Shown here: positions 1,575-34,372 of the stretch, in pieces
Numbering within the stretch: the first letter of the stretch is position 1
Layout of the letters: each line of letters opens with the position of its first letter
Virus record (IMG/VR): IMGVR_UViG_3300042922_000610
Location: 1-60,783 of that record
Direction: 5' to 3' (one strand)
DNA from: a virus
Lineage: Duplodnaviria; Caudoviricetes
Length of the DNA stretch: 60,783 nt
Translations under genes and position numbers: made by a program
Notes under the pieces: model-generated
Seen by the model: only the letters and a program-made list of their open reading frames with translations
Told to the model about the DNA's origin: nothing
Database searches by the model: none

Positions 1575-1639
1575 GCAGATACCACATCCGCACGGCTACC
1601 AACCATGCGGCACCACCACCACAGCAAGAGGAGACCGGC

Positions 1640-2281
1640 ATGAGAAGATACCTATACGCCTTCCTCGCATTCATCGTTTTTGCCGCCACTGCGGCATACT
1701 CCACCAACGCCGGAAGCGTTGCTCCGCCGGCGGCAAACTCCGTCGTCAAGATCCAACGTCCAGACAGCCACGGCTCCGGCGTTCACATCGGCAACGGCTC
1801 GTTTCTGACAGCTTGGCACGTCGTCAAGGACGCAAAAACCGTGTCGATCAAGACCAGCGACGGCAAGACCGTCGGCGCGAAAGTGCTCTGGTTCGCTGAG
1901 GAATACGACATCGCCATGCTGAGCGCTGACGGCGCCGGTATCTCTTCCTCTCCGCTTACCTGCCGTGCCGCCAATGACGACGAGCCTATCGTGGCGAAGG
2001 GCAATCCGCTCGCGCTCGAGTTCGTTTCCGCATACGGCCACATCAGCGGCAAGGCCCGAAAGACGGGGCCGTGGGCGTCCGTCTATATCACCGACATCAC
2101 GACAGTTATGGGGATGTCAGGTGGCGGCGTCTTTGACGCTGCTGGCAACGTGCTCGGCATCAACGTCGGCGTTGCGGCCGCACCGATGAAGGTCAGCGGT
2201 GGATGGGTGCCGTCGATTACGGGATTCGGCATGGTCGTGCCGTCGGCTGACGTGTGCAAGTTGCTGGCGAGGGCGGCATGA
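1640..2281 (+). CDS. Secreted trypsin-like (S1) serine protease
   Basis: Signal peptide, GSGV..LTAWHVV, YDIAML, GMSGGGVF. Confidence 0.85.
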   Translation: MRRYLYAFLAFIVFAATAAYSTNAGSVAPPAANSVVKIQRPDSHGSGVHIGNGSFLTAWHVVKDAKTVSIKTSDGKTVGAKVLWFAEEYDIAMLSADGAGISSSPLTCRAANDDEPIVAKGNPLALEFVSAYGHISGKARKTGPWASVYITDITTVMGMSGGGVFDAAGNVLGINVGVAAAPMKVSGGWVPSITGFGMVVPSADVCKLLARAA

Positions 2282-2700
2282 ACACCACCCTCGCCAAACT
2301 CACCATCCTCAACACCTGCTGGGCCGCACTCGTCGTCTGGGCATCGTTCATGGGGTATGTCACGTTCGTTTTCGAACATGATATCTCCCGCCTCAGCTAC
2401 GTCATCACGGCAGTCTTTGCCGCAGCTCTTCTGGCCGCATTCGCGGGCCGCACGGCGCACCTTCACCGAACCGAAGTCTGGCTCGTGACGCTCGGCCTGA
2501 TCGGCAACGTCATCGGCTTCATCATCGCCTTACAGGAGATCGACACAGGCTCGCTCGGCACGGCGGACGGCGTGCAGCGCGTTGCCGCCAGCTTGTTGGC
2601 TGGCATGGGCGTCGCGTTCTGCTCGACGCTAGTGGGCGCTGTGGCCGCACTCTGGACGTCCACGGTTGCGTGGGTGCTCGGCGTTGAGGAGGTGGCGTGA
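2278..2700 (+). CDS. MotA/TolQ/ExbB-like membrane channel subunit
   Basis: Four hydrophobic segments; TLGLIGNVIGFI and AGMGVAFCSTLVG resemble family motifs. Confidence 0.7.
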   Translation: MNTTLAKLTILNTCWAALVVWASFMGYVTFVFEHDISRLSYVITAVFAAALLAAFAGRTAHLHRTEVWLVTLGLIGNVIGFIIALQEIDTGSLGTADGVQRVAASLLAGMGVAFCSTLVGAVAALWTSTVAWVLGVEEVA

Positions 2701-2900
2701 TGCTGCATTACTACCTCTTCAGTTTCGCCCTGAGTGACGGCGGCTTTGCCCGCGTCACCATGGGATGGGATGATCTGCCTGTAACGGAGAGCAAACTCAG
2801 GGAAGCGCGCGATGCCGCCATCGGGCATAAAAACGCTTCGGCATGCCCGCTAGCGGTCAGCTACCTTGGCTGCATGACGCCTTCGCAGGCCACGTCATGA
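2697..2900 (+). CDS. Hypothetical protein
   Basis: Coupled stop/start junctions on both sides. Confidence 0.6.
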   Translation: MMLHYYLFSFALSDGGFARVTMGWDDLPVTESKLREARDAAIGHKNASACPLAVSYLGCMTPSQATS

Positions 2901-3445
2901 ACGGCGTCCTCTTTCGTGACCTGCTCATGAACATGCTGTTGGGCTTGGTGGCGATCGTCGTCATCACGCTCTCGAGCATCAACCCCAAAGCCGAAGCCGC
3001 CGACCCCATCGACCCGCCGGGCAACCTCGTCGCGTCAATAGCATGGCCAGCAGGATCGATCGACGTCGATCTCTGGGTCGGCCACAGCGACGAGGCGGTC
3101 GGTTTTCGCTTCAAGAGCGGAAAGGTCTGGTCCTTGCTGAGGGACGATCTCGGTATCGCGAACGACAGCACGTCTTTGAACTTCGAATCCGCATTCACGC
3201 GAGGCCTGCCAGACGGCGAATACGTCATCAACGTTCGCTGTTACGGCTGCGCCGGCAAGGTGCCGGTTCCCGTCAATGTCGAGGTGCGGCTAGCCGAGGG
3301 AGGCATGATTTACCGCGATGTCATCGAGCTCGTCGCCGATAAGCAGGAGCGCACAGCCGTTCGGTTTCGGATGCGCGACGGCAAGGTCGTCGCGGGTTCG
3401 GAGTCGAGTGTTTTGAAGATGTTGAGCAATAAGGGGGAGAAGTGA
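2897..3445 (+). CDS. MotB/ExbD-like single-TM protein with periplasmic beta domain
   Basis: FRDLLMNMLLG TM segment with Asp; W..DVDLWV..RDDLG..GEYVINV (YfaP/DUF2135-like). Confidence 0.6.
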   Translation: MNGVLFRDLLMNMLLGLVAIVVITLSSINPKAEAADPIDPPGNLVASIAWPAGSIDVDLWVGHSDEAVGFRFKSGKVWSLLRDDLGIANDSTSLNFESAFTRGLPDGEYVINVRCYGCAGKVPVPVNVEVRLAEGGMIYRDVIELVADKQERTAVRFRMRDGKVVAGSESSVLKMLSNKGEK

Positions 3446-3657
3446 TGGCACACATAAAAATAGAGTGGCTGACCGATTACAGCGATTGCGAGACGTGCGG
3501 CGGCAACTACGCAGATGGCGCACGCGTCACAATAGACGGCGCCGTTGCTCTCGACCTTGAGCCAGTCGCGCATTGCTACGGCGGCCAGCATTACGGCGAG
3601 CGCGACGTGTTCAAGCGCGTTCTCGAACATCTTGGCCATACGGTGGAGGTGGAGTGA
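3442..3657 (+). CDS. Hypothetical protein with CxxC
   Basis: DCETCG; coupled to neighbours. Confidence 0.65.
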   Translation: MMAHIKIEWLTDYSDCETCGGNYADGARVTIDGAVALDLEPVAHCYGGQHYGERDVFKRVLEHLGHTVEVE

Positions 3658-4368: not shown

Positions 4369-4371
4369 GGG

Positions 4372-6190: not shown

Positions 6191-6248
6191 CCACCACCCT
6201 GCTGCCGGCCACCAACCGGCAGCAATCACCACGAAAGAGGAGACTTTC

Positions 6249-6461
6249 ATGAATTACGGACAGGCCATTGAGGCCATGAAGAGAGGCGGAACGGCGTGGC
6301 GAGACAGTGCGCCAGACGCGATCGTGTTTATAGCGCATCACGGCACCCCGCTGGAATATATGTCGAAGATCACGCCGGATGGACAAGCCGTATTCCAGCC
6401 GACGACGAGGGACCAACTTGCCGAAGACTGGCTCGTCTCCGACGCGGATGAGGTGGCGTGA
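6249..6461 (+). CDS. DUF2829 / Tad2-like (Thoeris anti-defence sponge family) protein
   Basis: MNYGQAIEAMKRG...DQLAEDW signature. Confidence 0.65.
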   Translation: MNYGQAIEAMKRGGTAWRDSAPDAIVFIAHHGTPLEYMSKITPDGQAVFQPTTRDQLAEDWLVSDADEVA

Positions 6462-8951: not shown

Positions 8952-9083
8952 CCGTCGGAAAAATAAAAAACCCACCAAACCGTCTTAACGCGGCATGCGG
9001 CTCCTAGAGCATTGTGGGTTAATCGCGACCGTTGCCACAGCCTCGCCTTACTGGCGGGGCATTTTTTCATCCTGCTGGCGCAG

Positions 9084-12147: not shown

Positions 12148-12344
12148 GCCGCCTCCCTCTCGCGCCCATAGCCCAGCAGCTCGAGCTTATCGGCAATCCG
12201 CCGCAGGTTGTCGGCCACAGCCTGCCGGCGATAGCCCTTGTTGTCATTTGCGGCCGCTACCTGGCGCAGCGAGGCAGGGCAAAGGTTGTCGGCGATCGCA
12301 CGCTCGACGGTGAGGAGGGGGGTGTTATTGTTTGCGTGTCTCAT
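12144..12344 (-). CDS. Hypothetical protein
   Basis: CCACCACAGAAGGAGAC RBS; ANNN and ANDN motifs. Confidence 0.7.
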   Translation of the reverse strand: MRHANNNTPLLTVERAIADNLCPASLRQVAAANDNKGYRRQAVADNLRRIADKLELLGYGREREAA

Positions 12345-12403
12345 GATGTCTCCTTCTGTGGTGGCTGCCGCATTGCGCGGGGCGCAATCGGGCAGGGTGG
12401 TGG

Positions 12404-13622: not shown

Positions 13623-13708
13623 GGTCGTCTCCTCATGGCCGCGCTGGGCCGGTGGTGGTGCGCCTTGGTGAGCCCGTATCGGGCAGCGCTGAGGAGACTT
13701 ATAAGCCT

Positions 13709-13745: not shown

Positions 13746-14492
13746 CTACCAGTATTTGCCGGCTAGTACAATTGGGTGAACGCTCACAACCTGTTCACGC
13801 GTGAAATCAATCTTCTTGTTGGGATTGTACTGCTGGAGGACCAGTTTATTGGCGGTCCAGCCTACGAATTCCTTCACGAATCCCCTCGGCGGCGCACCTT
13901 CGTCCTCGCGGTCGCGATGAACCTGCACGACGACGTCGTCACCTCGACGAGCGGGCTTGGTGGGATGAACCCAGACGGTCTCACCTGGGCGGAAGCGCGG
14001 CACCATCGATTCGCCGTCGATATAGACAGCGTATGCGTTAGGCACGTTCTCGAGTGATGGCGGGCAGTCGACGTAATCCAAAACCGACCCGTTGAAAATG
14101 TACTCTCCGTCTTCTCCGCCCACGGCTTCTCCTAACACTGGCAGCAGTTTCTTCTTGCGCGGCTCCATATTCGCTTGCTCGCCGATCGTAGCATTTGGCT
14201 CGGTGGGGTAGCGCGCCATTTCCCTGTACCGCGAGATCGTCTCGCTGATGGAGGGCGGCAGCTTCGTATTCCGCTCAGGGTCGCGGCCAGCCTCCTTCAT
14301 CAGTTCCCGCATCTCCGCCTCGTCGATCTTCAGTTCGCGCGCGATCTCGCGCCAGGCCGTGGATGAAGCCACGCGGCCAGCAAACAAATTGTTGATCGCC
14401 TGTTGCGTCAGTCCGACTCGGCGAGCTAGCTCTGCCTGCGCGATTCCAGCCTCCGCCAGCTTCTGTGTAAGCGTGTCCGTTAAGCGGCTCAT
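13746..14492 (-). CDS. c: Phage repressor C (HTH + S24 peptidase), 16-3-like
   Basis: QAELARRVGLTQQAINNL HTH; AVGG cleavage region, GESM, FVKE; closely resembles 16-3 C protein from memory. Confidence 0.95.
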   Translation of the reverse strand: MSRLTDTLTQKLAEAGIAQAELARRVGLTQQAINNLFAGRVASSTAWREIARELKIDEAEMRELMKEAGRDPERNTKLPPSISETISRYREMARYPTEPNATIGEQANMEPRKKKLLPVLGEAVGGEDGEYIFNGSVLDYVDCPPSLENVPNAYAVYIDGESMVPRFRPGETVWVHPTKPARRGDDVVVQVHRDREDEGAPPRGFVKEFVGWTANKLVLQQYNPNKKIDFTREQVVSVHPIVLAGKYW

Positions 14493-14545
14493 TGATAAAT
14501 CTCCTTGCCGAACAAGCGATTAAACCATTGTAGCCAAAAAGGCAA

Positions 14546-14585
14546 ACAATGGTACTTGACCTTTTGGGCTAACAATTGTAGTTGT
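14546..14585. promoter_or_regulatory. OR-type operators (ACAA-N6-TTGT) at divergent promoters
   Basis: ACAATTGTAGTTGT (14572-14585), near-match ACAATGGTACTTGA (14546-14559), TTGACC -35. Confidence 0.8.
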
Positions 14586-14676
14586 TGATTGTAACCAGCG
14601 AACCAGCCAATGGTTCCAACAAAAAAGCCAACAGGGCGAAAGAACTCTAAGAACGGCAAAATGAAGGAGAAGTGAC

Positions 14677-14736
14677 ATGCGGCATAACGAAAACACGAAA
14701 GAGAGAAGAGATGCACAGAAAGGCCAACCACCGTAG
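14677..14736 (+). CDS. 19-aa leader peptide candidate at cro position
   Basis: AAGGAG RBS; MRHNENTKERRDAQKGQPP*. Confidence 0.4.
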   Translation: MRHNENTKERRDAQKGQPP

Positions 14737-14742
14737 TTACCG

Positions 14743-14777
14743 AACGCTGCCCGCCTCGCTCGCGGGTGGCGTTTTTT
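14743..14777 (+). terminator. Intrinsic terminator/attenuator in PR leader
   Basis: AACGCTGCCCGC-loop-GCGGGTGGCGTT then T run. Confidence 0.75.
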
Positions 14778-14981
14778 GCGTGTCGGCCAAACACAACTAC
14801 GGGGCTCTTGAACCTTTCGGCCGGCACCACCCGTAAACAAGAGCCCCATTAGTTCCTACTAGTTCGCGGAGGAGACTGACTGACGCCTGACGGCCGCGAG
14901 CTTTCGATATCGCCACCACAGCGACGCGTTACTGTTACCACCGGTTTCGCAAATTTGTCAAGCTATAATGTGCACCGCACG

Positions 14982-15587
14982 CTATTGGCCCACGGTCGCA
15001 ACACGCTCGGAAAGGACGACTGCATGCACCGCCTGAACATCGTCGACGACGAGCCGCCCGCCGCCGTACTGGCTAATCTCGGCGCGTCCACTTTCAAGCG
15101 CCTCGAGCCGCCCCAGCCACGCAACACCGCCCTTGCCGTGCACAATCACTTCGTTGCCGATTCGCGGCCAGACGGCTGGATCCAGCCACGCTTTCGTGCC
15201 GTAGAGCAGCGCAGGCTCCATGACGTTCGTGCCGATTGTCACGCTGTAGCGCCCCTCGGGGATGCGCTTTCGGCCGGCGTTGACAGGATCGAACTTGAAT
15301 TTGCCCTCCTTGCGGTCGGACACGCGCCCGTATTCGCGCGCCCTGTCCAGCCGTGGCAACTTCGTGTTGCCGGTGCTTTCGCGGGCCTCCTCGCAAAGCT
15401 CCTCGAGCATGTCGATCGATATGTTGAGGAATTTTGCCAGCGGGCCGTACAGGTTGGGGCGCGGAATCGAGCCGTGCTTCCACGTGCTGTAGGTCTGCTG
15501 GCGCACGCCAATTTCGGCGGCAGCTTCTCGGTCGGTCTGGCTGCGCCGACCTTGCTCATTCAGCAACATCTGGGAAAGGCGTGACAC
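14982..15587 (-). CDS. Second repressor-like regulator (XRE HTH + degenerate S24-like domain)
   Basis: EAAAEIGVRQQTYSTWKHG HTH; C-terminal MEPAL..G..AWLDP; GGAG RBS before GTG. Confidence 0.8.
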   Translation of the reverse strand: MSRLSQMLLNEQGRRSQTDREAAAEIGVRQQTYSTWKHGSIPRPNLYGPLAKFLNISIDMLEELCEEARESTGNTKLPRLDRAREYGRVSDRKEGKFKFDPVNAGRKRIPEGRYSVTIGTNVMEPALLYGTKAWLDPAVWPRIGNEVIVHGKGGVAWLGRLEALESGRAEISQYGGGRLVVDDVQAVHAVVLSERVATVGQ

Positions 15588-15717
15588 GGCTATTGCTCCA
15601 ACCGGTATGTTAACACTACAACCAGCAACTATTACAAATTTGTCAAACCGCGTCAACCATCGCGGCTGACAGGGCGGGGAAGCCCGCATCTACACCACCA
15701 CGACAAGAGGAGACAAT

Positions 15718-15972
15718 ATGGACGATACGGAACAAATGCGCGCCCTGCAGACAGAGGGCGTATCCCTCAGACAAATCGGCATGAGATTCGGGCTTACTGG
15801 CACGGCGGTCTTTTATCGCCTCGGCGGCGTTCGCAAGCTGCGCAGCGGCCCGCCTCCTGCAGCCAACGACAACAAGATCGTCAAGATGGTCGCGCACAAC
15901 GGCGGCTGCTCGACGACGAGCGGCATGGTGCCGGTTTCGCTGCCTCGCGTTGGCGTGAAGGTGGCGGCATGA
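15718..15972 (+). CDS. Small HTH protein
   Basis: GVSLRQIGMRFGLTGTAVFYRL; AGAGGAGAC RBS. Confidence 0.75.
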   Translation: MDDTEQMRALQTEGVSLRQIGMRFGLTGTAVFYRLGGVRKLRSGPPPAANDNKIVKMVAHNGGCSTTSGMVPVSLPRVGVKVAA

Positions 15973-16247
15973 GCGATTACTGCGAGGATTGCGACCGCCA
16001 CTATTTCGGCTACGGCGACAGGGTAAGGCTGGTCCAGAACCACATGCTGCTTGGCCAGGTGATCGGCGAGCGCAACTGGCATCAGGAGTATCTGGTACGA
16101 CTTGGAGCGACCGTCTCTGCCATTTGGTTTGAGAGTGTCGAGCTCGAGCCGGATCCTGATTTTGAGGACGACGGCACTGCCGCCGCTGGTGATGGCGGCG
16201 AAAACAACGTCATTCCGTTTCCGAAGAAGGCAGGAGGGCTCCACTAA
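15969..16247 (+). CDS. Hypothetical protein
   Basis: Coupled; NNVIPFP. Confidence 0.7.
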   Translation: MSDYCEDCDRHYFGYGDRVRLVQNHMLLGQVIGERNWHQEYLVRLGATVSAIWFESVELEPDPDFEDDGTAAAGDGGENNVIPFPKKAGGLH

Positions 16248-17173
16248 TGGGTAAGTTTAAGGTTGGGGATCGGGTTCTGGCGAAAAATCGCGGCTACGAA
16301 GACGGCGAGCATGAGGCCGTTGTCATTTCTGACGACAATGGCTCCGTCCTCGTCGAATTCAACGACGGATGGACCGGCGGCCACGATGCGCAGATACACG
16401 ACAACCGAGAAAACCGATGGTATTCCTCATACGACGAACTCGAACTGCTGCCAGTTGCGGAGCAACCCGCAGCATGGCAGCCGAAGGTCGGCGATCGGGT
16501 GCGGTTTACCGACAAGTGTGACGCCTTTTGGTGGTTCGGCCCGCATACTGGACACAAGGAAGGCGCCGTCTCCGGCCCATCTTCGTATCCAGGCTATCAG
16601 TTCGAGGTCAAGATCGACGGCGAGGACCACCCTGCGCACGTCGATATGAGGCACATCGAACCGCTGCCCGTTGCAGCAGAGGCGCAACCCGCAGCGCTGA
16701 ATATCGAAGCCGGCAAGTTCTACCGCACGCGCGACGGGCGGAAGGCGGGTCCAGCCGAAGCGCGCGACCCTGATGACTACGATACCTATCCGTGGCGCGT
16801 GCCCGTTGACGATGACGATGGGCATTACGTCTACACCGACGACGGCAAGTATAACGTGGCTTTCGGCTCCACGCGTCACGACCTCATCGCCGAATGGGTC
16901 GACGAGCCCGCCGCCAAGGCAACCGTCGGCGCACAGGTCGACACCATCGCCGAGGAATACGGGCCGGTTGTTGCCGCGAGCAACGATAACGCCCCCAAGG
17001 CCAGCACCGCCGGCTTCACCATCCCGCTGTTTGAGGACGACGGACAGCCGCGAAAACTAGTGAAAACTAAAGGCGGATACGGCTTCGAACTAGCCCGTTT
17101 CGGCAACTACGCGTGGGTTGATACGGGACAGACCGCGCCGATCACGCTCAAGGTCTCGGATATCGCCGCCTAA
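16247..17173 (+). CDS. Modular hypothetical protein (two KVGDRV SH3-like units + RTRDGRK unit)
   Basis: KFKVGDRV, QPKVGDRV, IEAGKFYRTRDGRK. Confidence 0.75.
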   Translation: MGKFKVGDRVLAKNRGYEDGEHEAVVISDDNGSVLVEFNDGWTGGHDAQIHDNRENRWYSSYDELELLPVAEQPAAWQPKVGDRVRFTDKCDAFWWFGPHTGHKEGAVSGPSSYPGYQFEVKIDGEDHPAHVDMRHIEPLPVAAEAQPAALNIEAGKFYRTRDGRKAGPAEARDPDDYDTYPWRVPVDDDDGHYVYTDDGKYNVAFGSTRHDLIAEWVDEPAAKATVGAQVDTIAEEYGPVVAASNDNAPKASTAGFTIPLFEDDGQPRKLVKTKGGYGFELARFGNYAWVDTGQTAPITLKVSDIAA

Positions 17174-17233
17174 ACCCCACCAACCGCCACCACAGCGCCT
17201 CCTGCTCACCGGCAGGAGGCAGAGGAGACAGAT

Positions 17234-17431
17234 ATGAATATTGCAGGAGCAATTGCCGCCTTGTTCGGCATCATCGTGTGGGCAACCATCGTTGCCGGTT
17301 CGCTGGCCGCGTGGGTTACTCACGTCATCGTCTGCATCAAAGCGAGCGCTTGGATTCTGCTCGCCTTCGGCTGTGTCGTTGCGCCGGTTGGCGTCGTTCA
17401 CGGCTTCGGTATCTGGGTTGGGATTTTCTGA
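17234..17431 (+). CDS. Small membrane protein
   Basis: Hydrophobic; strong RBS. Confidence 0.7.
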   Translation: MNIAGAIAALFGIIVWATIVAGSLAAWVTHVIVCIKASAWILLAFGCVVAPVGVVHGFGIWVGIF

Positions 17432-18597: not shown

Positions 18598-18833
18598 TGG
18601 AAAAGATCGTTGCTTCTTTCCTTGCGGTTATCGCCATCGCGTTCATTGCGCCGCTGGCCGGCGTGTTGATCGGCTCATTTACTGGATGGGTCGTCGGCCT
18701 CGTCTTTAGCGAGACAATCCTGTCTTTTCTCTCGCGGTTCGGCGTCGACACCGCTGGACTAGCCGTTTGGCAAATCGGCGCCGCCATGGGGTTCTTGGGC
18801 AGCTTCCTGCGAACCACCGTCAGCAAAACCTAA
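18597..18833 (+). CDS. Small membrane protein
   Basis: TAATG junction; hydrophobic. Confidence 0.7.
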   Translation: MEKIVASFLAVIAIAFIAPLAGVLIGSFTGWVVGLVFSETILSFLSRFGVDTAGLAVWQIGAAMGFLGSFLRTTVSKT

Positions 18834-18868
18834 CCACCCACCAACCACCACCACAGAAGGAGACTTAA

Positions 18869-19462
18869 ATGGCCAAGATTGGCGTAAGAATCGAAGCGAC
18901 CGAAGAGGGCACCGAGCAGCGTTCCGGTGATTTTCCGAACCTGCCGAATGGCGTTTACTCGCTTGAGATGGAGGCCGGCGACGTCATCGAGAAGGACAAG
19001 GACACGCCGCAGCACGTCATTACGGTGAAGATGACAGCACAGGTCGTCGAGCCGGCCGAGTTTGCTGGTCGCAAGATGTTCGTCAACTACAACATTCAGC
19101 ATCCGAATTCCCAAGCGCAGGACATCGGTAACAGGCAGTTCCAGTGCCTTCTTCGCGCTCTTGAGCTCACCGAGGTTCCGGGGGACGATACGGACAATCT
19201 GCTGTTCAAGTCTTTCACGGCGACAATCGGCATGGGCAAGGACAGCAAGGAGAAGAACGCCGACGGCTCTCCGAAGTACGCTGCTCGCAATGAGATCAAG
19301 CGCTACTGGTTCCCTGATCAGGGTGACACCCCCGCCATCGGCGTGACTGGTCCTGCACCTGAAGCACGCGCACCAGCAAACGACAACCGCGCTCCCGCCG
19401 CGCAGCAGCAGGCGGCACGTCCTGCGGCTACGGGCAACAGGCCGTGGGGTAGCAAGAAGTAA
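18869..19462 (+). CDS. DUF669-like ssDNA-binding protein
   Basis: LPNGVY..GRKMF..A..IG..RNEIKRY; follows Sak4-like gene. Confidence 0.75.
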   Translation: MAKIGVRIEATEEGTEQRSGDFPNLPNGVYSLEMEAGDVIEKDKDTPQHVITVKMTAQVVEPAEFAGRKMFVNYNIQHPNSQAQDIGNRQFQCLLRALELTEVPGDDTDNLLFKSFTATIGMGKDSKEKNADGSPKYAARNEIKRYWFPDQGDTPAIGVTGPAPEARAPANDNRAPAAQQQAARPAATGNRPWGSKK

Positions 19463-19523
19463 CAACGCCTATGCGGCGGGTCGTCACCAGCGGCCCGCCA
19501 TCCACCACACAAGAGGAGACAAA

Positions 19524-19928
19524 ATGAAGCGCATTTTTCTTGCCGTTGCGTTGGCCGCGACGGCGTTCCTGGCAGGCTGCACCGACGCTGACGTCGCGTC
19601 GCAGAACATTTCAAAGGCGGCCGACAACTTCGAAGTCAACCGCCGCGTCGTTTTCTATAACGGCATCACTGGCGACTACATCCTGACGGTCGAGGGGCTT
19701 TGCTCTCTCGGCAATGCTGACGCGGCGCGCGAGGTGACGATCACCTGCAAGACCGGGCCGCGCGCATACAAGAAGCACTTTCTCGGCCTGTCCGACAATG
19801 TGACCTTCTTCGCGGAGCAGTTGGAGCCGGCTGCAGTCAGCGCCTACCACTACCGCGTGACCTTCAAGCCGCAGACGATCATTCCTGACATCGATTTCCG
19901 CGGCGATGCGGAAGAGTTGGTGAACTGA
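19524..19928 (+). CDS. Phage lipoprotein
   Basis: Lipobox LAGC; ADNFEVNRRVVFYNGIT..KKHFLGLSDNV. Confidence 0.85.
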   Translation: MKRIFLAVALAATAFLAGCTDADVASQNISKAADNFEVNRRVVFYNGITGDYILTVEGLCSLGNADAAREVTITCKTGPRAYKKHFLGLSDNVTFFAEQLEPAAVSAYHYRVTFKPQTIIPDIDFRGDAEELVN

Positions 19929-19930
19929 CC

Positions 19931-20332
19931 ATGGGCGACAAGAACTTCAAATGGTGGGCCGCAGATTCGGAAGACGCGGAAATCTTCCAAGGCCCATACG
20001 ACAGCCGCGAGGAGGCAATTCAGGTCGGCGAAACAGACTTCGACGGCGAGGATTTCTACATCGTAGAGGCAGACAAATCCGTGATGCGTGCCAACTTTGA
20101 CGGAGAGCGATACGCCGAGCGCATCATGGAAGATATGATCGAAAATAACGGCGAATGTTTCAATGAATACGGCGAAGCAGACCCTTGGGCCGATTACGCC
20201 AATCCGCACCGTTCGCTCGGCAACGCCATTGAGAAGGCAGTCGAGGACTGGCTTGCCGCCCATCCCGGCAAGACATGGTCGTTCGGCACAATGCGCAACG
20301 GCGAAACCATTGAGGCCAAACAGGACGCCTAA
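19931..20332 (+). CDS. Acidic hypothetical protein
   Basis: GPYDSREEAI. Confidence 0.7.
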   Translation: MGDKNFKWWAADSEDAEIFQGPYDSREEAIQVGETDFDGEDFYIVEADKSVMRANFDGERYAERIMEDMIENNGECFNEYGEADPWADYANPHRSLGNAIEKAVEDWLAAHPGKTWSFGTMRNGETIEAKQDA

Positions 20333-20388
20333 CCACCACACCGCTGCACGGCCACCACCGTGCGGCGCCACCACAAGAGGAGACCACC

Positions 20389-21441
20389 ATGCGCCTACTC
20401 ATAGGCAAACAGGAACTCGCGCGCGTTATGGCCAACGTCGGCCGTGTCGTCGAGAGCCGCAACACCATTCCGATTCTCGGTCACGTCATGCTGGCTGCGG
20501 CTGGCGGGGGGCTTGCCGTAACTGGAACCGACCTCGACATCGTCGCGACTGCATCGGCAACTGCTGACATCGAGAAGGACGGCGCCGTCTGCGTCGACGC
20601 CAAACTCTTCGGGGACATAGTTAAAAGAATAAGCGGCGACATTTCGCTCAGCCTTGAGGCTGAAAAGCTGATTGTGAAATCAGGCCGTAGCCGTTTCTCG
20701 CTGGCAACGCTCCCCGCCGCAGACTTCCCCGACCTCGGCGGCGGCACGTTCACGGCGGAATTCGATCTGGACATCGCAGCGATGTTCGCTCCGGTTTCGT
20801 TCGCCATCAGCAACGAGGAGACCCGATTTTACCTGAACGGAGTCTACTTCCAATCGACGGAAGGGGATTCGTCTGTTGCGGTAGCAACCGACGGGCATCG
20901 GCTGGCGCGCAACTTCGGTCCAGCCTTGCCAACCTTTGCCGGCATCATCGTGCCGCGGAAGACGGTAAGTTTGCTGCCGAAGGGCGAGGTTCGCGTCTCG
21001 GTCTCCGATACCAAGATCCGCATCGTGGCCGGTGACTTCGTGCTCACGAGCAAGCTGATCGATGGCACATTCCCCGATTATAACCGCGTCATACCCACAC
21101 AGAACGACAAATCCGTTGCCGTCGATCGTGATGCCATGATGGGTGCAGCCGAACGCGTCGTTACCGTCTCGTCGGAAAAGAGCCGCGCGGTGAAACTGGC
21201 AATCGCGCCAGGATCGATCGGGCTTTCTGCGCGCTCCGATGTCGGCGATGCGCAGGACGAGGTGGCGGCCGACTATACCGGCGAGCCCTTCGACATGGGC
21301 TTCAACAGCCAGTATTTGCGCGACGTGTTCGGCGTTCTGCCGGTCGGTCAAGTCAATATGCAACTCGCCGAAGGTGCGCCAGCGCTCATCACTGGCGGCG
21401 CCGAGGGGCTGTTGCTGCTCTTGATGCCGATGCGCGTATGA
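20389..21441 (+). CDS. dnaN: DNA polymerase III beta sliding clamp
   Basis: RNTIPIL, TDLD, ETRFYLNG, ATDGHRL, LIDGTFPDY, GFN..YL, LMPMRV. Confidence 0.95.
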   Translation: MRLLIGKQELARVMANVGRVVESRNTIPILGHVMLAAAGGGLAVTGTDLDIVATASATADIEKDGAVCVDAKLFGDIVKRISGDISLSLEAEKLIVKSGRSRFSLATLPAADFPDLGGGTFTAEFDLDIAAMFAPVSFAISNEETRFYLNGVYFQSTEGDSSVAVATDGHRLARNFGPALPTFAGIIVPRKTVSLLPKGEVRVSVSDTKIRIVAGDFVLTSKLIDGTFPDYNRVIPTQNDKSVAVDRDAMMGAAERVVTVSSEKSRAVKLAIAPGSIGLSARSDVGDAQDEVAADYTGEPFDMGFNSQYLRDVFGVLPVGQVNMQLAEGAPALITGGAEGLLLLLMPMRV

Positions 21442-21728
21442 CCAGCGTAGCGGGGCAGGAAGGCGGGCTGTGGCGGCCCGCTAACGGAACTGATGGCGCC
21501 GATTTTGAGCGCAAGTGGTGCGCGCATTGCTTGGAGTCGACACCGAACGTTTGGGAAGACGAATTCGGAAACGAGGTCGTGAGCGGCTGCGATATCGTTG
21601 ACGCCACGTTCATGGGGCACGTCCTTGCGCTGGAATGGATCATCCGCGACGGCATGCCGTGGTGCAAGGCGTTTCGGCAGGATCCGGAACGGCCGTCGCG
21701 GTGCCTGTTTACGAAGGAGATGTTTTGA
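21438..21728 (+). CDS. Cys-rich hypothetical protein
   Basis: PANGTDG..WCAHC..C..C. Confidence 0.7.
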   Translation: MTSVAGQEGGLWRPANGTDGADFERKWCAHCLESTPNVWEDEFGNEVVSGCDIVDATFMGHVLALEWIIRDGMPWCKAFRQDPERPSRCLFTKEMF

Positions 21729-22705
21729 TGGCACCTCTGCCGCGCCCCCAAGCATCCACCGTTTCCGCGATTTACAAGGCGTACGAGGAGCGCAACGAAC
21801 AGCGAGACGGAAAAACGATTCCCGCCTCGCAGCTTGCCGAAGAGTGCAGCAGGAAGCTTTTCTACGACTTCCGCTGGACGACGCCGCACGAGCACATACC
21901 TGGCCGCACGCTGCGCATCTTCGAAACCGGCAACATCGAGGAAGACCGCTGGATTGAAAACCTGCGCATGATCGGATGCGAGGTTGTCGATCGCGCGCCA
22001 GACGGCCGTCAAATCCGCGTCGATCTGGCTGGCGGCCACGTCGGCGGCTTTCTCGATTCCGAGATCCTTGGCTTGCCGGAGGCGCCGAAGACTTGGCATG
22101 TGGGCGAAATAAAAAGTCACAATCTGAAGAGCTTCACGGCCCTGAAGAAGGATGGCGTTCGCGTCAGCAATCCGCTGCATTTCGGGCAGATGCAGGTTTA
22201 CATGCATGCGCGAGGGCGCGACAGGGCGGTCTATCTCGCAGTATGCAAAGACAACGACGAGCTCTATGCAGAGCGGATCCATTACGATCTGGAATACTGC
22301 CTGCGGCTGCTTGCAAAGGCGGAGCGCATTATCAACGCGCACGAGCCGCCGGCAAAACTGCACGAAGATCCGACTGCCAAGATGGCCTTCGCCTGCGGAT
22401 GGTGCAAGCACCGCGGCATCTGCCACGAGGACGCATGGCCGCGCTCAAATTGCAGGACATGCCTTTATGCGTCTCCGGAGCAGGGCGGCACATGGTCCTG
22501 TTCACGCTTCAACAAGCCCTTGTCGCTCGACGAGCAGAAGGCGGGATGCCCTGCCCATTTGTTTTTGCCGGCGCTGATTCCAGGCGAACAACTAGATTGC
22601 GACGAGGCCGCCGAAACAGTGACGTACAGGCTGCGCAGCGGTCAAATCTACGTAGACGGCGCCGCGAACGACAACGACCCGCCCATTGCCGCGCAAGCGG
22701 CGTGA
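21728..22705 (+). CDS. PD-(D/E)XK Cas4/lambda-exo-like nuclease
   Basis: C.RKLFY, D..EIKS, QMQVYM, C-terminal Cys clusters. Confidence 0.85.
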   Translation: MAPLPRPQASTVSAIYKAYEERNEQRDGKTIPASQLAEECSRKLFYDFRWTTPHEHIPGRTLRIFETGNIEEDRWIENLRMIGCEVVDRAPDGRQIRVDLAGGHVGGFLDSEILGLPEAPKTWHVGEIKSHNLKSFTALKKDGVRVSNPLHFGQMQVYMHARGRDRAVYLAVCKDNDELYAERIHYDLEYCLRLLAKAERIINAHEPPAKLHEDPTAKMAFACGWCKHRGICHEDAWPRSNCRTCLYASPEQGGTWSCSRFNKPLSLDEQKAGCPAHLFLPALIPGEQLDCDEAAETVTYRLRSGQIYVDGAANDNDPPIAAQAA

Positions 22706-22748
22706 CCACTACGGCCTCACCAGCCGAACACCACAAAGAGGAGACGAT

Positions 22749-23258
22749 ATGCAACCCGCAATAGCACCCGCCACCGAACAAGCAAGGCCAGCGTGGTATG
22801 ACCAAAAGCTAGTCGAGCACACGCATCTCATTCGCAGCATAGCCTACAAGCGCCGCTATGGTGTCATGGCCGAAGAGCTAGTGCAGGATATTTATGTCTC
22901 AGCCTTGCAGCGGTGGCACTACTACGATGAAAAGCACGAATTCGGAATCTGGATCAGGCTTGTAGCTAGCCACGTCATGGCCAGACAACGAGAGAAGGCT
23001 GGCCGTATCAAGCGAACAGCTAAGTTGGTGCCGATCAAGGACGTGAGCCCCGCCACGCCGCCGACCCAGCATGACTATGCAGAGTTGTCGGAAACGTTAC
23101 GACGTCTTTCCGGCACGCGCGATAGCGACGTGCTCATGCGTTACGCCATGGGCGAAGAACTGGGCGAGATAGCTGTCGACTACGGGGTTAGTAGGAATCG
23201 CATTCACCAACTTTGCCAGCGCGAGCGCGAGCGATTGGCGGCGAGGGCCGCGGCATGA
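22749..23258 (+). CDS. ECF-like sigma factor
   Basis: AEELVQD..F..WI (region 2); EIA.DYGVSRNRIHQL (region 4). Confidence 0.8.
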   Translation: MQPAIAPATEQARPAWYDQKLVEHTHLIRSIAYKRRYGVMAEELVQDIYVSALQRWHYYDEKHEFGIWIRLVASHVMARQREKAGRIKRTAKLVPIKDVSPATPPTQHDYAELSETLRRLSGTRDSDVLMRYAMGEELGEIAVDYGVSRNRIHQLCQRERERLAARAAA

Positions 23259-24040
23259 GCCACGCGAACGATAACAAAAAGCGGCGTGCAAAGCCCGGCG
23301 AGGCAAGGGCCTGGTTGGATGACGTAATTGCGCGCAAGGATGAAATTAAAGGCTGCGTCTTCTGGCCGTTCTCACGAGACCAAAAGGGCTACGCAAAAAT
23401 CAATGTTGGCGGCAAGCCCGACAATGCACATCGCGTGGTTTGCAAGGCCGTTAAGGGTGAACCGCCGACGCCTAGCCATCAGGCAGCCCATAATTGCGGC
23501 AATGGAAAGTTTGGCTGCATCAGCCCTGACTGCTTGCGGTGGGCCACTCAAATCGAGAACGAGGCGGACAAAATCATCCACGGCACACGCCTGATGGGGC
23601 AGGACGTCAGCAACTCCAAAATCACAATAGAAACGGCGCGCATGATCCATGTCCTGCGGGCAAAGGGAATGACGCAGGAGGAGATTGCGTCGTCCCTCGA
23701 TATCCTGCGCCAGCAGGTCAGCCGGATCGCGTCTGGCGACAGGTGGGCGCATATTCACCCCGACAATGACAGCGTGACCGCCTCCATGGTTTCAGATGTT
23801 GCAAGCAATCGTTCCACTGCCGATTGTCGCGTCTCTATTTCCGATTCCCAGGTTAGGCAAGCGCACGTCCTTCGCGCGTTAGGTCAAACCTACGAAGAAA
23901 TCGGCAAAGCTCTAGGGATGGATACCAAGCAGGCGAACCGCATTGTTCGCGGAGATCGTCGGCGGAATCTGCATCCTGAAAATGATCCAGTAACCGCACG
24001 AATGATAGCGGAAGCGACCAGTGAAAAGGTTGCCGCATAA
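23255..24040 (+). CDS. HNH endonuclease with two tandem HTH repeats
   Basis: CVFWP, AHRVVC, AAHNCGN..CI.P..LRW.T..EN..D; two H.LRA.G.T.EEI..HP.ND units. Confidence 0.85.
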   Translation: MSHANDNKKRRAKPGEARAWLDDVIARKDEIKGCVFWPFSRDQKGYAKINVGGKPDNAHRVVCKAVKGEPPTPSHQAAHNCGNGKFGCISPDCLRWATQIENEADKIIHGTRLMGQDVSNSKITIETARMIHVLRAKGMTQEEIASSLDILRQQVSRIASGDRWAHIHPDNDSVTASMVSDVASNRSTADCRVSISDSQVRQAHVLRALGQTYEEIGKALGMDTKQANRIVRGDRRRNLHPENDPVTARMIAEATSEKVAA

Positions 24041-25807: not shown

Positions 25808-25836
25808 TTGACAAATTTGTAGAGCCGAACTATTTC
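25808..25836 (+). promoter_or_regulatory. Promoter with ACAAATTTGT palindrome
   Basis: TTGACA-17-TATTTC. Confidence 0.65.
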
Positions 25837-25949: not shown

Positions 25950-25978
25950 TTGACAAATTTGTAGAAATGAATTAAGAC
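25950..25978 (+). promoter_or_regulatory. Promoter with ACAAATTTGT palindrome
   Basis: TTGACA-17-TAAGAC. Confidence 0.65.
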
Positions 25979-26028
25979 TGGACCAAACCGCGGAGTACCG
26001 CCCGCGAGCACCACAAGAGGAGACAGAT

Positions 26029-26280
26029 ATGATTGCCGAGGAAAGAAGAAGACCGGACGCCGACGAGGCGCAGAACCAACCGCGCATTGTTGCGGAAGCA
26101 ACAAGCGGCGGTGAGTGGCTGCAGCACGACTTGTCGAAGCGCAGACCAGTAGAACTAGACGAGATGGTCATTACCCGCTGCGCTGGCGATTGGCGAGAAG
26201 AGGCGGAGGAGTGGGGCGCTAGCCCAGCCAACAAAGTAGATTGGGAAGCCGTGCTGGAATACCGAGTGGTGGCAGCATGA
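26029..26280 (+). CDS. Hypothetical protein
   Basis: AGAGGAGAC RBS. Confidence 0.65.
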   Translation: MIAEERRRPDADEAQNQPRIVAEATSGGEWLQHDLSKRRPVELDEMVITRCAGDWREEAEEWGASPANKVDWEAVLEYRVVAA

Positions 26281-27001: not shown

Positions 27002-27098
27002 CCGCCCCACTGCCGCGCCCTAGCGCGCAGTCAACCACCAACACCACCCGCGCGCCACCAACGCGCGGGACACCACACCTAGAGGAGACAACAGCCCC

Positions 27099-28421
27099 AT
27101 GGGCAACAATGGCATCACACAGATGCACGACGGGAGAGTCGTGCTCCATCAGGCAGACTGCCGCGACGTTCTGCGCGGCATCGCCGACAATTCGATCGAC
27201 TCGGTGGTCACGGATCCACCCTACGCGCTCGTTTCCATCCAGAAGCGTTTCGGTAAGCCGGGTTCAGCCCCGGCCAAAGACGTTTATGGACGTGGCGCCG
27301 CCGGGTTCATGGGCAAGCAGTGGGATACCGGCGAAGTCGCATTCAACGAGGAATTCTGGGCCGAAGTGCTGCGCGTGCTCAAGCCTGGCGGGCATGTCGT
27401 CGCGTTCTCCGGCACGCGGACCTATCACCGCATGGCGGTGGCGATCGAGGATGCCGGCTTCGAAATCCGCGACCAGTTGGGCTGGGTGTATGGTTCTGGG
27501 TTTCCGAAGTCGCACAACCAGCACGGCGACTGGGAAGGGTGGGGAACAGCGCTGAAGCCCGCGTGGGAGCCTATCGCGCTGGCGCGCAAGCCGCTCGACG
27601 GGACGGTTGCGGCCAATCTCGCAGAGTGGGGCGTGGGCGCGATCAATGTTGATGGGTGCCGGGTCGGTGATGAGGTAGTCGGCTGGGGCGGTGGCGCTGC
27701 TGGCGGCAACACATGGAACGATGAGAACTGCGGCCTCGCCAAGGGCGGCGAGGCGCGCCCGGTAGTCGGCCGCTGGCCCGCCAACATCGTCCACGACGGC
27801 AGCGACGAGGTGCTGGCGGCGTTTCCTGACACCAAGAGCGGCAGCCGTAAGGCGGGCGAGTACGGGCTGATGGGATACCACGGCGCGGACGCTGCACCCA
27901 TGCCAGCGATTGATGGCGACTCCGGTTCTGCAGCCCGCTTCTTCTATTGCGCCAAGGCCAGCCGTGCTGATCGGGATGCTGGGCTAGACCACCTGCCGAA
28001 GAAAGCTGGCGGCATGGTGTCGAACACCAGTGGCCAGCACATCACTCGCCGCGATGAGGGCTATGAGCCGACGCCCCGCGCCAACACCCACCCCACCGTC
28101 AAGCCAACCAGCCTCATGCAGTGGCTCTGCCGCCTCATCACGCCTCCCGGCGGCGTCATTCTGGATCCATTCATGGGCTCTGGCTCGACGGGCAAGGCCG
28201 CTGTGCTGGAGGGTTTCCAGTTTATCGGCTGCGAGCGCGAGGACGAATACATGCCGATCGCCACGGCGCGCATTGCGTGGGCAATCGGTGCGGTCAGCCA
28301 GGACGAGCCAGAACAGCGGCCCGTTGCAGCGGTAGCGCAACCAGCCGCCGCTCCTGCTGCGGCGAACGACAATCAACCCGCAGACTTGTTCTCGGCCGCT
28401 CCGCTGGCAGGTGCCGCATGA
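27099..28421 (+). CDS. Orphan amino (m6A/m4C) DNA methyltransferase, beta class
   Basis: DPPY before HPTVKP and DPFMGSGST. Confidence 0.93.
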   Translation: MGNNGITQMHDGRVVLHQADCRDVLRGIADNSIDSVVTDPPYALVSIQKRFGKPGSAPAKDVYGRGAAGFMGKQWDTGEVAFNEEFWAEVLRVLKPGGHVVAFSGTRTYHRMAVAIEDAGFEIRDQLGWVYGSGFPKSHNQHGDWEGWGTALKPAWEPIALARKPLDGTVAANLAEWGVGAINVDGCRVGDEVVGWGGGAAGGNTWNDENCGLAKGGEARPVVGRWPANIVHDGSDEVLAAFPDTKSGSRKAGEYGLMGYHGADAAPMPAIDGDSGSAARFFYCAKASRADRDAGLDHLPKKAGGMVSNTSGQHITRRDEGYEPTPRANTHPTVKPTSLMQWLCRLITPPGGVILDPFMGSGSTGKAAVLEGFQFIGCEREDEYMPIATARIAWAIGAVSQDEPEQRPVAAVAQPAAAPAAANDNQPADLFSAAPLAGAA

Positions 28422-33522: not shown

Positions 33523-33745
33523 AAATACAACCTGCGCCGCTCAGAAAATACAACCTAAGATAATGCACGGTAATAGCTGCACAGTAGCGTAAAAATCGCC
33601 CCTTTATCCGGGCAAACACGCTCTGCTCATTTGCACAGTAATACACCTTGTTACTGTGCATGATGAGCGTGCGGCGCACAGTTGGCCCAGTAGTCTAACT
33701 GTGCAACTGGGCACCTGAATCGGCCACCAACCGATACAACCTGAA
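33522..33745. repeat. Putative replication origin with two iteron families
   Basis: ATACAACCT x3; GCAC(A/G)GT in direct and inverted orientation x6; directly after primase-helicase. Confidence 0.55.
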
Positions 33746-33765
33746 ACCACCACACAGGAGACACC

Positions 33766-34290
33766 ATGGCCCGCCAAGTACAAACCACCCGCATGAACGG
33801 CAAGCGCGTCCGCATCGTCACGACAACCAGCAAGGACGGCGGAACGAAGGTGACCGTGAAGGCGGCGCCGCTCGAGGAATGGATTCTGCAGGCTGCCGGG
33901 GTCCGCGCCCTGAAGGCCATGCCGGAATATGCGGCCAGCGCTGAGAAGGTTGCGGCAAACGATAACGCGGCTCGCCACAGCTTTACAATCGCTGGCGACA
34001 TGAATGGCGACTATCGCAGCAAGCGAGCGGCAGTGAAGGCGCAAGCCACCGGCATTGCGGCTGGCGATCCAGATTTGCGCGTGTATCTGCCTGGCGGCGT
34101 TCTTCGCCTCATCGAGTACAAGAATGCGGAAGGCACGCTTACGACAAGCCAGAAGATCCGCCACCCGCTCCTTGCCTCGCTTGGCCATCCTGTCGTCACG
34201 CTCAAGGTTGCGACGGAGGAAGAGGCGGCAGAGCGTACGGTAGGTTTGGTTCGAGGCTGGCTGGCCGAGGTCGATGCACTTGCGGCTTGA
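33766..34290 (+). CDS. VRR-NUC-like endonuclease
   Basis: G..AG.PDL..IEYK...G.L..SQ. Confidence 0.8.
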   Translation: MARQVQTTRMNGKRVRIVTTTSKDGGTKVTVKAAPLEEWILQAAGVRALKAMPEYAASAEKVAANDNAARHSFTIAGDMNGDYRSKRAAVKAQATGIAAGDPDLRVYLPGGVLRLIEYKNAEGTLTTSQKIRHPLLASLGHPVVTLKVATEEEAAERTVGLVRGWLAEVDALAA

Positions 34291-34315
34291 CAAATTTGTA
34301 GAAATACGGTATATT
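34287..34315 (+). promoter_or_regulatory. Promoter with ACAAATTTGT palindrome
   Basis: TTGACA-17-TATATT. Confidence 0.75.
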
Positions 34316-34372
34316 ATAGTGTTGCGGTCACCTGCCGCAACATTTTCACCACAGGAAGAGGAGACATGGCGT

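Follow-up and report, generated by a model that had tools for sequence, protein, structure and literature searches.

A conserved hairpin, C/A tract and extended Shine-Dalgarno leader upstream of early genes in 16-3-like phages

The window analysed here, the whole 60,783-nt stretch of IMG/VR virus record IMGVR_UViG_3300042922_000610, is the complete genome of a temperate soil phage related to the Sinorhizobium phage 16-3, in which early genes are repeatedly preceded by small hairpins with different stems and an ACC trinucleotide in the loop. These hairpins belong to a real, conserved and phage-specific leader motif, where they are followed by a C/A tract and an extended Shine-Dalgarno (SD) sequence, and the motif looks like an apparently undescribed gene-expression signal common to many phages of root-nodule bacteria and their kin. 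With a probability of about one half, the three elements are considered to form a single mRNA leader module for translation initiation, composed of a hairpin, a C/A standby or enhancer tract and a strong SD.

In the 5' to 3' direction, the proposed module would often start at the stop codon of the upstream gene, with CCACC directly after it, and would continue with a stable, G+C-rich hairpin carrying a (Y)NACC(A)(R) loop. Next would come a C/A stretch of about 11 nt (CACCAC) that is poor in G and U, and then the extended SD AGAGGAGAC, with the start codon 4–6 nt later. Such a module would supply each separately initiated (non-coupled) early or middle gene with its own insulated and efficiently loaded ribosome site.

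Loop sequence, strand and spacing of the hairpins

When hairpins with stems of 7 bp or more (G.U pairs permitted) and 6–7 nt loops were collected in the window with no prior choice of loop, 96 were obtained on the + strand and 115 on the − strand. Loop positions 3–5 read ACC in seven of the 96, where it was the commonest trinucleotide, and in none of the 115. These seven hairpins (6200, 17197, 19475, 20342, 27047, 33632 and 34318) were all intergenic and located upstream of an SD. An initial annotation of this DNA had described a dispersed family of RNA hairpins on the sense strand, and this placement was confirmed, a strand-independent distribution not being seen.

The combination CACCAC-N0-6-AGAGGAGAC occurred nine times in the forward orientation of the window, and neither the reverse orientation nor a backwards control gave any copy. 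The extended SD AGAGGAGAC was itself present in 11 copies against 0.27 expected, each of them in the sense of the next gene and all within 1.6–34.4 kb. The forward word CACCAC was intergenic in 26 of its 37 copies, although intergenic DNA represents 11% of the genome, and four of the five intergenic reverse copies (12358, 12397, 13652 and 13655) lay in leaders of the leftward operon. No antisense partner RNA was found, intergenic GTGGTG being present only as the sense CACCAC of leftward genes. CACCAC plus an SD was found in 17 leaders of the window, of which about 11 carried an ACC-loop hairpin, so the claim that nearly every non-coupled early gene has such a leader was overstated. The late-gene hairpins of the same phage had UUCG or other loops, not ACC.

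The same leader design was present in the phages 16-3, RHph_X2_25, AP-16-3 and NV1.1.1, with which window positions 14000–22000 share 77–79% nucleotide identity over 22–48% of that stretch. It was also found in 22 prophage loci, located via a Sak4-like gene, of Brucella/Ochrobactrum, Rhizobium, Shinella, Falsochrobactrum, Limoniibacter and Sinorhizobium genomes, and the family was detected on dozens of IMG/VR contigs.

Hairpins with stems of at least 7 bp were pooled from 36 sources, each distinct hairpin being counted once (n = 4846). ACC was present in the loop of 69 of the 267 hairpins with an SD and a start codon in the next 45 nt, compared to 206 of the 4579 others (odds ratio 7.4, p 2e-29), whereas the reverse complement GGT showed the opposite trend (8/267 versus 297/4579). 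Shuffling of the letters within each loop produced 41.6 ± 4.5 ACC loops, with a maximum of 58 in 2000 shuffles, against the 69 observed. Therefore, the enrichment of ACC is not due to composition alone. The trinucleotides ACC, CCA and CAC were enriched in SD-linked loops, and CCC, ACA and AAC were depleted.

Another set was defined by its flanks, with an SD 6–22 nt downstream and a spacer of at least 70% C+A, the loop being ignored. ACC was found in 42 of these 64 hairpins, and the 22 heptaloops among them contained ACC in 21 cases, started with C in all 22 and ended with A in 20. The main loop forms were CNACCAA and CUCACCA. The loops of the family were 87% C+A, and its stems measured 7–13 bp, mostly 7–10. 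The distance from the end of an ACC-loop hairpin to the SD was 8–17 nt in 51 of 69 cases (mode 11), compared to 58 of 198, evenly spread, for the other SD-linked hairpins. The spacers that followed ACC-loop hairpins (888 nt) contained 36% A, 42% C, 9% G and 14% T, versus 25, 30, 24 and 20% for other hairpins, and the C/A spacer was unpaired in the predicted folds. A TTTT sequence within 9 nt of the hairpin was detected after only 5 of 275 unique ACC-loop hairpins, one of them the window terminator at 60657–60682, and intrinsic termination was rejected as the role of the family on these grounds.

The 90 nt upstream of every clamp-gene orthologue were taken irrespective of their content, giving 30 regions (the window and 29 loci). 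In 22 of them the predicted SD-adjacent hairpin had an ACC loop, and at least nine unrelated stems carried it, as expected from the variable paired stems and conserved loop originally described. Among the misses, L110 and L117 keep the stem of their kin with a UUGCCAG loop, L125 lacks the hairpin, and five distant phages (L100, L101, L102, L105 and L107) lack the whole leader type. Stems that vary while their pairing is kept, with a loop that appears to be selected separately, fit loop recognition by something; the ordered loop would be either read or specially folded.

An independent sample was obtained by scanning IMG/VR for CACCACAAGAGGAGAC-N3-7-ATG only, which gave 58 stretches against about two by chance on a rough estimate. 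The nearest predicted hairpin (at least 4 bp) in its 65 distinct upstream regions had an ACC loop in 38 cases and another loop in 16, and none was predicted in 11. By eye, several of these 27 misses hold short ACC-loop stems that had not been chosen by the fold.

Compared to dinucleotide shuffles, the hairpins at 6200 (z −4.3), 27047 (−4.1), 20342 (−3.4), 17197 (−3.0) and 19475 (−2.5) were clearly stable, whereas those at 34318 (−1.6), 33719 (−1.7), 22712 (−1.0) and 1588 (−0.8) were not clearly better than the shuffles. The hairpin claimed at 1588 differs from the minimum-energy fold, although it is scored at 25 bits by a covariance model. This model, R1, was built from 19 hairpins of relatives and none from the window; the seeds were 19 gap-free aligned rows out of 29 hairpins, and MAFFT on all 29 misaligned the stems. 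In the window, R1 detected 6199, 1586 and 27045 with E values under 1e-3, 20342 and 33714 with values close to 0.1, and 19475, 34318 and 22709 with values of 2–3. Its seven best window hits were all on the + strand, and two of them were not members: 9037–9070 is a U-tract terminator with a UUACU loop, and 2264–2304 spans a coupled start. Relatives amounting to 671 kb gave 45 hits at E ≤ 1, of which 44 were on the gene strand and 19 were seeds of the model itself, and the family was recovered in 16-3 and three other rhizobiophages. No match of the hairpins was obtained in Rfam, either at the gathering score in the whole window or at E ≤ 1 in positions 1–35000.

The internal mismatches in the stems of 108 hairpins were G.U in 27 cases, A.C in 12 and other in 10. 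This is a modest excess of the kind tolerated only by sense-strand RNA; a symmetric count of all non-Watson-Crick positions, with stem ends included, was uninformative (G.U 56 versus A.C 51).

In five host genomes (4.4–7.6 Mb), R1 gave 2–5 hits each at E ≤ 1 among the candidates scored (150 of 625–1537 first-look candidates per genome), the best ones being within prophage loci. As host hits were few and the best of them inside prophages, the leader motif is a phage feature and not a host habit.

Translation initiation and competing explanations

Translation initiation, a role absent from those offered in the initial annotation, is indicated by the constant hairpin-to-SD distance, the restriction to the sense strand, the extended form of the SD and the scarcity of G and U in the tract. 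From this anatomy we infer an effect on translation as well as the candidate readers of the loop. The C/A tract, unable to pair with itself or with the purine SD, would for this reason stay single-stranded and could serve 30S subunits (protein S1) as a standby or enhancer site for preloading. With a gap of 8–17 nt to the SD, the end of the hairpin lies some 25 nt upstream of the AUG, which would place it at the 5' border of the ribosome footprint. From there it might insulate the start site from the upstream coding sequence, protect the RNA end after transcription start or processing, and present its conserved loop to a reader, which could be the 30S platform, S1 itself or a dedicated factor.

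Precedents for the separate parts are available. Translation is reported to rise up to about 9-fold relative to a natural standby site, and about 11-fold relative to AU tails, when CA-repeat tails precede the ribosome site; these tails act as standby sites with an optimum of 16–18 nt, and natural C/A-rich upstream regions are cited as enhancers in the same source (PMC5934652). The standby site of tisB combines a single-stranded tract with a stem-loop on its 5' side, and S1 and 30S contact both of them (PMC6690012). The leader of the leftward operon (13627–13698) fits this layout, with its SD in a 7–9 bp helix and a free CACCACCACC tract between two hairpins, an arrangement kept in 5 of 5 phages.

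Several points weigh against a translation role. Standby binding is described as sequence-nonspecific (PMC6690012), which leaves the fixed-order ACC loop unexplained. Apart from the leftward-operon leader, the leaders have an open SD, for which a standby site is not strictly needed. ACC-type loops are also found on a few true terminators (60657–60682; 5 of 275 with TTTT), for which translation gives no explanation. About one-third of the leaders lack a hairpin (17791 and 18834) and some hairpins lack ACC (12365–12395). The excess of G.U over A.C is modest, some of the counted hairpins being orthologues, and pairing statistics on the 19-row alignment are circular, since the rows were picked as hairpins, and were not used as evidence.

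It is possible, if doubtful, that the (Y)NACC(A) loop is recognised in a sequence-specific way by a reader of its own, which could be a conserved protein of the phage or the host, or else a defined pocket in the 30S platform or in S1. Loop and C/A tract would then jointly provide a second, phage-borne layer of start recognition beside SD pairing, and a post-transcriptional regulon of early genes would be common to many temperate Rhizobiales phages. Pairing with 16S rRNA was rejected as the basis of recognition, as the matches in Sinorhizobium 16S rRNA, UUGGUGG at 218 and UGGUGGUG at 1184, are short and at chance level, and neither is near the mRNA exit; both regions are helical in the E. coli model. 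Mimicry of a tRNA anticodon loop or of 3'-ACCA was dropped too, because loop position 2 is not a fixed U and ACCA is not terminal. Regarding a special fold, the boxB hexaloop CUAACC of phage phi21 forms a GNRA-like UMAC turn (PMC12550061), and the CUCACCA loop fits the C-UMAC-C pattern.

A dedicated trans-acting RNA-binding protein, of phage or host origin, could instead use these elements as operators, binding the ACC loop with or without the CACCAC tract for coordinate repression, activation or stabilisation; this is judged rather unlikely. T4 RegA and CsrA-type regulators act on many messages, and such a protein would suit a loop order kept beyond composition on unrelated stems, many sites per genome restricted to the early/middle region while late hairpins use UUCG or other loops, and an SD-adjacent position, the classic place of a translational operator. 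It would also suit a phage-specific family, nearly absent from the five host chromosomes outside prophage loci among the 150 candidates scored in each (of 625–1537). However, neither Pfam (20 early proteins) nor PHROGs (10) revealed an RNA-binding or antiterminator family. Phages from several host genera retain the element, so its reader would have to be equally conserved or be a host component, and the sequence does not separate binding by such a protein from recognition by the ribosome. From the initial proposal of multiple sites for one RNA-binding protein, the sense-strand element and the selected loop are supported, and the single protein reader is a mere candidate.

Elements acting purely on RNA stability or processing, as exonuclease stops or 5'-end shields, are an improbable explanation. 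The hairpins are stable and G+C-rich, some are placed at predicted 5' ends of transcripts right after promoter-like sites (1588 and 34318), and the same loop type is present on terminators. The G/U-poor tracts would avoid RNase E, as they are U-poor and lack the A/U-rich sites which this enzyme prefers, and the loop would simply be a favoured stable fold. However, nothing indicates unusual stability of a YNACC loop, the late genes of this phage have hairpins with other loops, and neither the tight SD spacing nor the fixed extended SD would be required. A T7 early-type RNase III site spans roughly two turns of double-stranded RNA and often includes an internal loop, and stems of 7–13 bp are too short for it; processing by RNase, another of the initial suggestions, is disfavoured accordingly.

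Antitermination through nut/boxB-like sites had also been suggested, and appears quite improbable. An N-type antiterminator would bind the nascent loop and modify RNA polymerase, or block the loading of Rho on the C-rich flanks; the Rho-blocking variant would echo the rutA-boxB-rutB arrangement of lambda tR1. Downstream of both the rightward and the leftward early promoter, the first hairpin does carry ACC (15648–15665 and the leader at 13627–13698), the first leftward gene encodes a conserved basic protein of 66–71 residues, and the C-rich, G-poor flanks resemble a Rho loading sequence, although the C/A tracts, at 10–25 nt, are much shorter than known Rho sites. However, no protein family matched the basic protein, which the 16-3 record shows truncated to 28 residues. 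The boxA consensus of the rrn/lambda type is GCUCUUUAACA-like, and such a word (up to two mismatches) gave four matches against 9.3 expected, none of them beside a hairpin. At least ten sites are present in 1.6–34.4 kb, mostly between cistrons after stop codons, where one per operon would suffice; terminator-like sites on both strands of 14.4–34.4 kb numbered 21 versus 20.4 in shuffles, and a fixed SD distance of 8–17 nt has no role in antitermination. In favour of such sites, the CUCACCA and CUAACC loops of the family fit C-UMAC-C, the fold of the phi21 boxB hexaloop (PMC12550061).

A role at the DNA level, as linkers guiding modular phage recombination or as hairpin signals on the lagging-strand template, is very improbable: the phage encodes a Sak4-like annealing protein, the sense strand would be the lagging-strand template if forks move with transcription, and one mosaic junction falls in a leader, but stems differ at each site with only about 16 nt shared, and recombination at repeats is an expected by-product that leaves loop conservation, G.U-tolerant stems and SD spacing unexplained. 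The junction was found in the clamp-gene leader of RHph_X2_25 (L096, 31160–31305), a chimera of window positions 19400–19505 and 20375 onward that is joined inside the shared CACCAC...AGAGGAGAC (window 19400–19545 and 20290–20410). The two genes that the window has in addition to those of RHph_X2_25 (19524–20332) are flanked by two copies of CACCAC...AGAGGAGAC. As the leaders are repeated, the chimera is taken as a by-product; repeated leaders mark points of gene-module exchange and bear on the origin of mosaic genomes.

If the loop is read, the translation module would be a compact, portable signal setting early phage gene expression after transcription. Its presence in 16-3, a classical phage that is tractable genetically and has a harmless host used in the laboratory, makes direct testing possible. 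The module would add a natural case to the thin evidence on standby and enhancer sites outside enterobacteria, would provide a name and a covariance model for a motif missed by annotation pipelines, and offers ready-made strong ribosome sites for the engineering of rhizobia.

Individual leaders and neighbouring elements of the window

According to our gene map and the 16-3 annotation, accessory and early genes, mostly on the + strand, occupy about 1.2–35 kb, a leftward operon from integrase to repressor lies at 10.2–14.5 kb, and structural genes begin at about 38 kb. Nine of the ten hairpins listed in the initial annotation were verified at their places by direct reading, three of these being upheld weakly. 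The remaining one, 14910–14924 (+), was rejected as a family member, having a 4-bp stem with no SD or gene downstream. The elements described next are on the + strand unless indicated.

The hairpin at 1588–1610 is formed by CCGCACGG and CCAUGCGG around a CUACCAA loop, with one C.A mismatch (R1 25 bits, E 7e-4), and is placed just downstream of the promoter-like sequence TTGACAAATTTG at 1546; its leader (1611–1642) has a CACCACCACCACAGCA tract, the SD AGAGGAGAC at 1627–1635 and the ATG at 1640. At 6200–6224, a 9-bp hairpin with a CCACCAA loop (z −4.25, R1 36 bits) precedes a leader (6225–6251) with the C/A tract AAUCACCACGAA, an SD at 6236–6244 and an ATG at 6249. The first hairpin of the rightward early transcript, at 15648–15665, was absent from the initial list and has 5 bp and the loop UCAACCAU; at this place 16-3, AP-16-3 and NV1.1.1 carry a CAACCA loop on another stem. 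It is followed at 15693–15720 by a CACCACCAC tract, an SD at 15706–15714 and an ATG at 15718.

The hairpin at 17197–17220 (9 bp, loop UCACCG, z −2.96) abuts its SD at 17221–17229, and the C/A tract is located upstream, at 17174–17196. Its 3' arm is itself SD-like (GCAGGAGGC), is paired to GCCUCCUGC and adjoins the real SD AGAGGAGAC, so that within 17197–17229 the C-rich arm could pair with either purine run. Leaders at 17791–17811 and 18834–18871 have a C/A tract and an SD and no hairpin. At 19475–19499, a 9-bp hairpin with one G.U pair and a UCACCAG loop precedes a leader (19500–19526) with a C/A tract, an SD at 19512–19520 and an ATG at 19524, and the clamp gene is preceded by a hairpin at 20342–20367 (10 bp, one G.U, loop CCACCA) and a leader at 20368–20391 with a CCACCACA tract, an SD at 20376–20384 and an ATG at 20389. 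The stop codon of the upstream gene was repeatedly a TAA followed directly by CC(A)CC (stops at 6188, 17172, 17785, 18831 and 20330 on the + strand and 12405 on the − strand); as the TAA directly abuts CC(A)CC, the C/A tract begins at the stop codon.

A weak hairpin at 22712–22726 has 4 bp and a CUCACCA loop, the second commonest of the family (R1 10 bits), and its leader (22727–22751) includes a C/A tract, an SD at 22737–22745 and the ATG of a sigma-factor-like gene at 22749. Another weak hairpin is included in the leader at 25988–26031, which has a AGUACCGC loop, a CACCACA tract, an SD at 26016–26024 and an ATG at 26029, downstream of TTGACAAATTTG at 25950. The hairpin at 27047–27069 (8 bp, loop CCACCAA, R1 24.6 bits) is followed at 27070–27101 by a C/A tract, an SD at 27081–27089 and an ATG at 27099. 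An 11-bp hairpin with an ACACCUU loop at 33632–33660 was also absent from the initial list. The leader at 33719–33768 contains a 5-bp hairpin (33719–33735, loop CCACCAA, R1 15.6 bits), a C/A tract, the SD CAGGAGAC and an ATG at 33766. Directly after a promoter-like site at 34287–34315 there is a 10-bp hairpin with a UCACCUG loop (34318–34344), whose leader, extending to 34375, has a UUCACCACAGGA tract, an SD at 34357–34365 and an ATG at 34373. The intrinsic terminator at 60657–60682 is a 10-bp hairpin with a CUAACC loop, the phi21-type loop recurring here exactly, followed by T7, and is repeated at 1–26 via the terminal repeat.

On the − strand, the leader of the leftward operon at 12342–12403 has a C/A tract, a hairpin at 12365–12395 with a CCC loop, another C/A tract, an SD and an ATG at 12344 (z −3.7). 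The leader of the first leftward gene (13627–13698, −) starts with GUCUCCUCA at 13690–13698, which pairs with the SD UGAGGAGAC at 13627–13635 and encloses a hairpin with CUCACCAAGG in an internal loop, the free CACCACCACC tract and a second hairpin. The initial annotation had included both places as minus-strand cases: the CACCAC tracts in the leaders were confirmed there and an ACC hairpin loop was not, the loop being CCC in the former and ACC lying in an internal loop, at about 13650, in the latter.

In all five phages, the leftward early transcript starts with GUCUCCUC(A), which pairs over 7–9 bp with the SD (U)GAGGAGAC of the first gene, and this helix encloses an ACC-bearing hairpin, a free ACCACCACC tract and a second small hairpin. 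The window copy had a predicted energy of −36 kcal/mol (z −4.6), with orthologues in L009, L096, L097 and L098, and among 99 AGGAGA-type leaders of the five phages an anti-SD was detected only in these five orthologues. As modelled, this arrangement is the textbook case of a ribosome site that is sequestered and has a standby tract inside it, and it looks like a putative translational switch on the conserved basic protein of 66–71 residues, for which no Pfam or PHROG hit was obtained. A second type of leader with a sequestered SD was observed in the IMG/VR contigs L134, L138, L148, L155 and L166, where CTCCTCTTG, the exact complement of the SD word CAAGAGGAG, comes after a promoter-like TTGACG...TATAT and precedes a CAGC/AACCA/GCUGG hairpin.

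The sequence TTGACAAATTTG was found at seven distinct sites (10 matches with the terminal repeat and palindrome partners) against 0.11 expected: 43–54, 1546–1557, 25808–25819, 25950–25961 and 34287–34298 on the + strand, and 14950–14961 and 15635–15646 on the − strand. In it, a TTGACA −35 hexamer is joined to ACAAATTTGT, a palindrome of 10 bp, and further copies are found in 16-3 and in many related IMG/VR contigs. These sites probably represent a class of phage promoter overlapped by the operator of a dimeric regulator, and the spacing of their half-sites presumably differs from that of the 16-3 C-repressor operators.

Look-alike leaders were observed on the + strand at about 35930–35976 and 36950–36999, with a 12-bp UUCG hairpin about 21–25 nt before GGAGTCGAGACC and a start codon (35977 and 37000). 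This UUCG type is also present in NV1.1.1 and constitutes a second, smaller family of repeated leaders, possibly tied to genes of the homing-endonuclease type. A match to the Rfam abiF RNA (40.9 bits, gathering cut-off 37) was detected at 35707–35743 (+), in an intergenic gap of 489 nt. At 22749–24040 (+), two neighbouring genes match sigma-70 region 2/4 and helix-turn-helix, and the 16-3 annotation also has sigma factors here; the phage may redirect transcription via its own sigma factor. No tRNA genes were found in the window, and for positions 15500–23500 no matching RNA data set was listed among public sequencing runs. Bases 1–127 are an exact copy of 60657–60783 and the record is classed with direct terminal repeats, unlike 16-3, which has cohesive ends according to its annotation; the 127-base repeat may be an assembly overlap of a circular contig.

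Comparison with known systems

CsrA/RsmA sites have GGA in the loop and overlap the SD, and this assignment was rejected here, as GGA loops are absent and the loops are 87% C+A. The PeSL cassettes of T4-type phages consist of an early promoter followed by a stem-loop, are repeated at gene boundaries and have been linked to modular shuffling. Similarly, three of the hairpins (1588, 25988 and 34318) are preceded by TTGACAAATTTG, and a mosaic junction was found in one leader. In contrast to PeSL, most members found here have no promoter and are placed between cistrons, and conservation concerns the loop rather than the whole cassette. No account of these hairpins was found in the literature, including the AP-16-3 genome paper (PMC10460002); the older 16-3 papers are mostly outside this coverage and a passing mention in them is possible.

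The phi21 boxB (PMC12550061, PDB 1NYB) shares with the family a small phage hairpin and a C/A loop with AACC. The phi21 nut site differs in that no boxA accompanies the hairpins here, many sites are present per operon, the SD distance is fixed and no N homologue was found. With the tisB standby site, the leaders have in common a single-stranded tract with an adjacent 5' stem-loop and, in 13627–13698, a sequestered SD. In tisB, tract and stem-loop are both required for the preloading of 30S/S1. However, some 100 nt separate the tisB site from the ribosome site, and no loop motif is known in it (PMC6690012), whereas most leaders here have an open SD.

The C/A enhancers and CA-repeat tails of enterobacteria resemble the C/A tract, being unstructured, G/U-poor and directly upstream of the ribosome site, with an effective length of 12–18 nt compared to 8–17 nt here (PMC5934652). 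These are engineered tails or single natural leaders, whereas the present case is a family known from sequence, in alphaproteobacterial phages, with a conserved-loop hairpin and a fixed SD.

The SAS/ESAS elements of Cluster K mycobacteriophages are the nearest described system. SAS is a conserved extended SD word located a few nucleotides before the starts of a subset of genes; an inverted repeat directly precedes about half of its copies, and involvement in translation is suspected (PMC3203893). As in the window, the elements are confined to the non-structural half of the genome, have one orientation and are absent from the host. The 13-bp word GGGATAGGAGCCC gave two loose matches in the window against 0.94 expected, not at leaders. 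ESAS has conserved 17-bp arms and a variable spacer, whereas here it is the loop that is conserved and the arms that vary; hairpin and SD are separated by a C/A tract here, unlike in SAS/ESAS, and the host phylum also differs. The two systems therefore share their logic but not their sequence.

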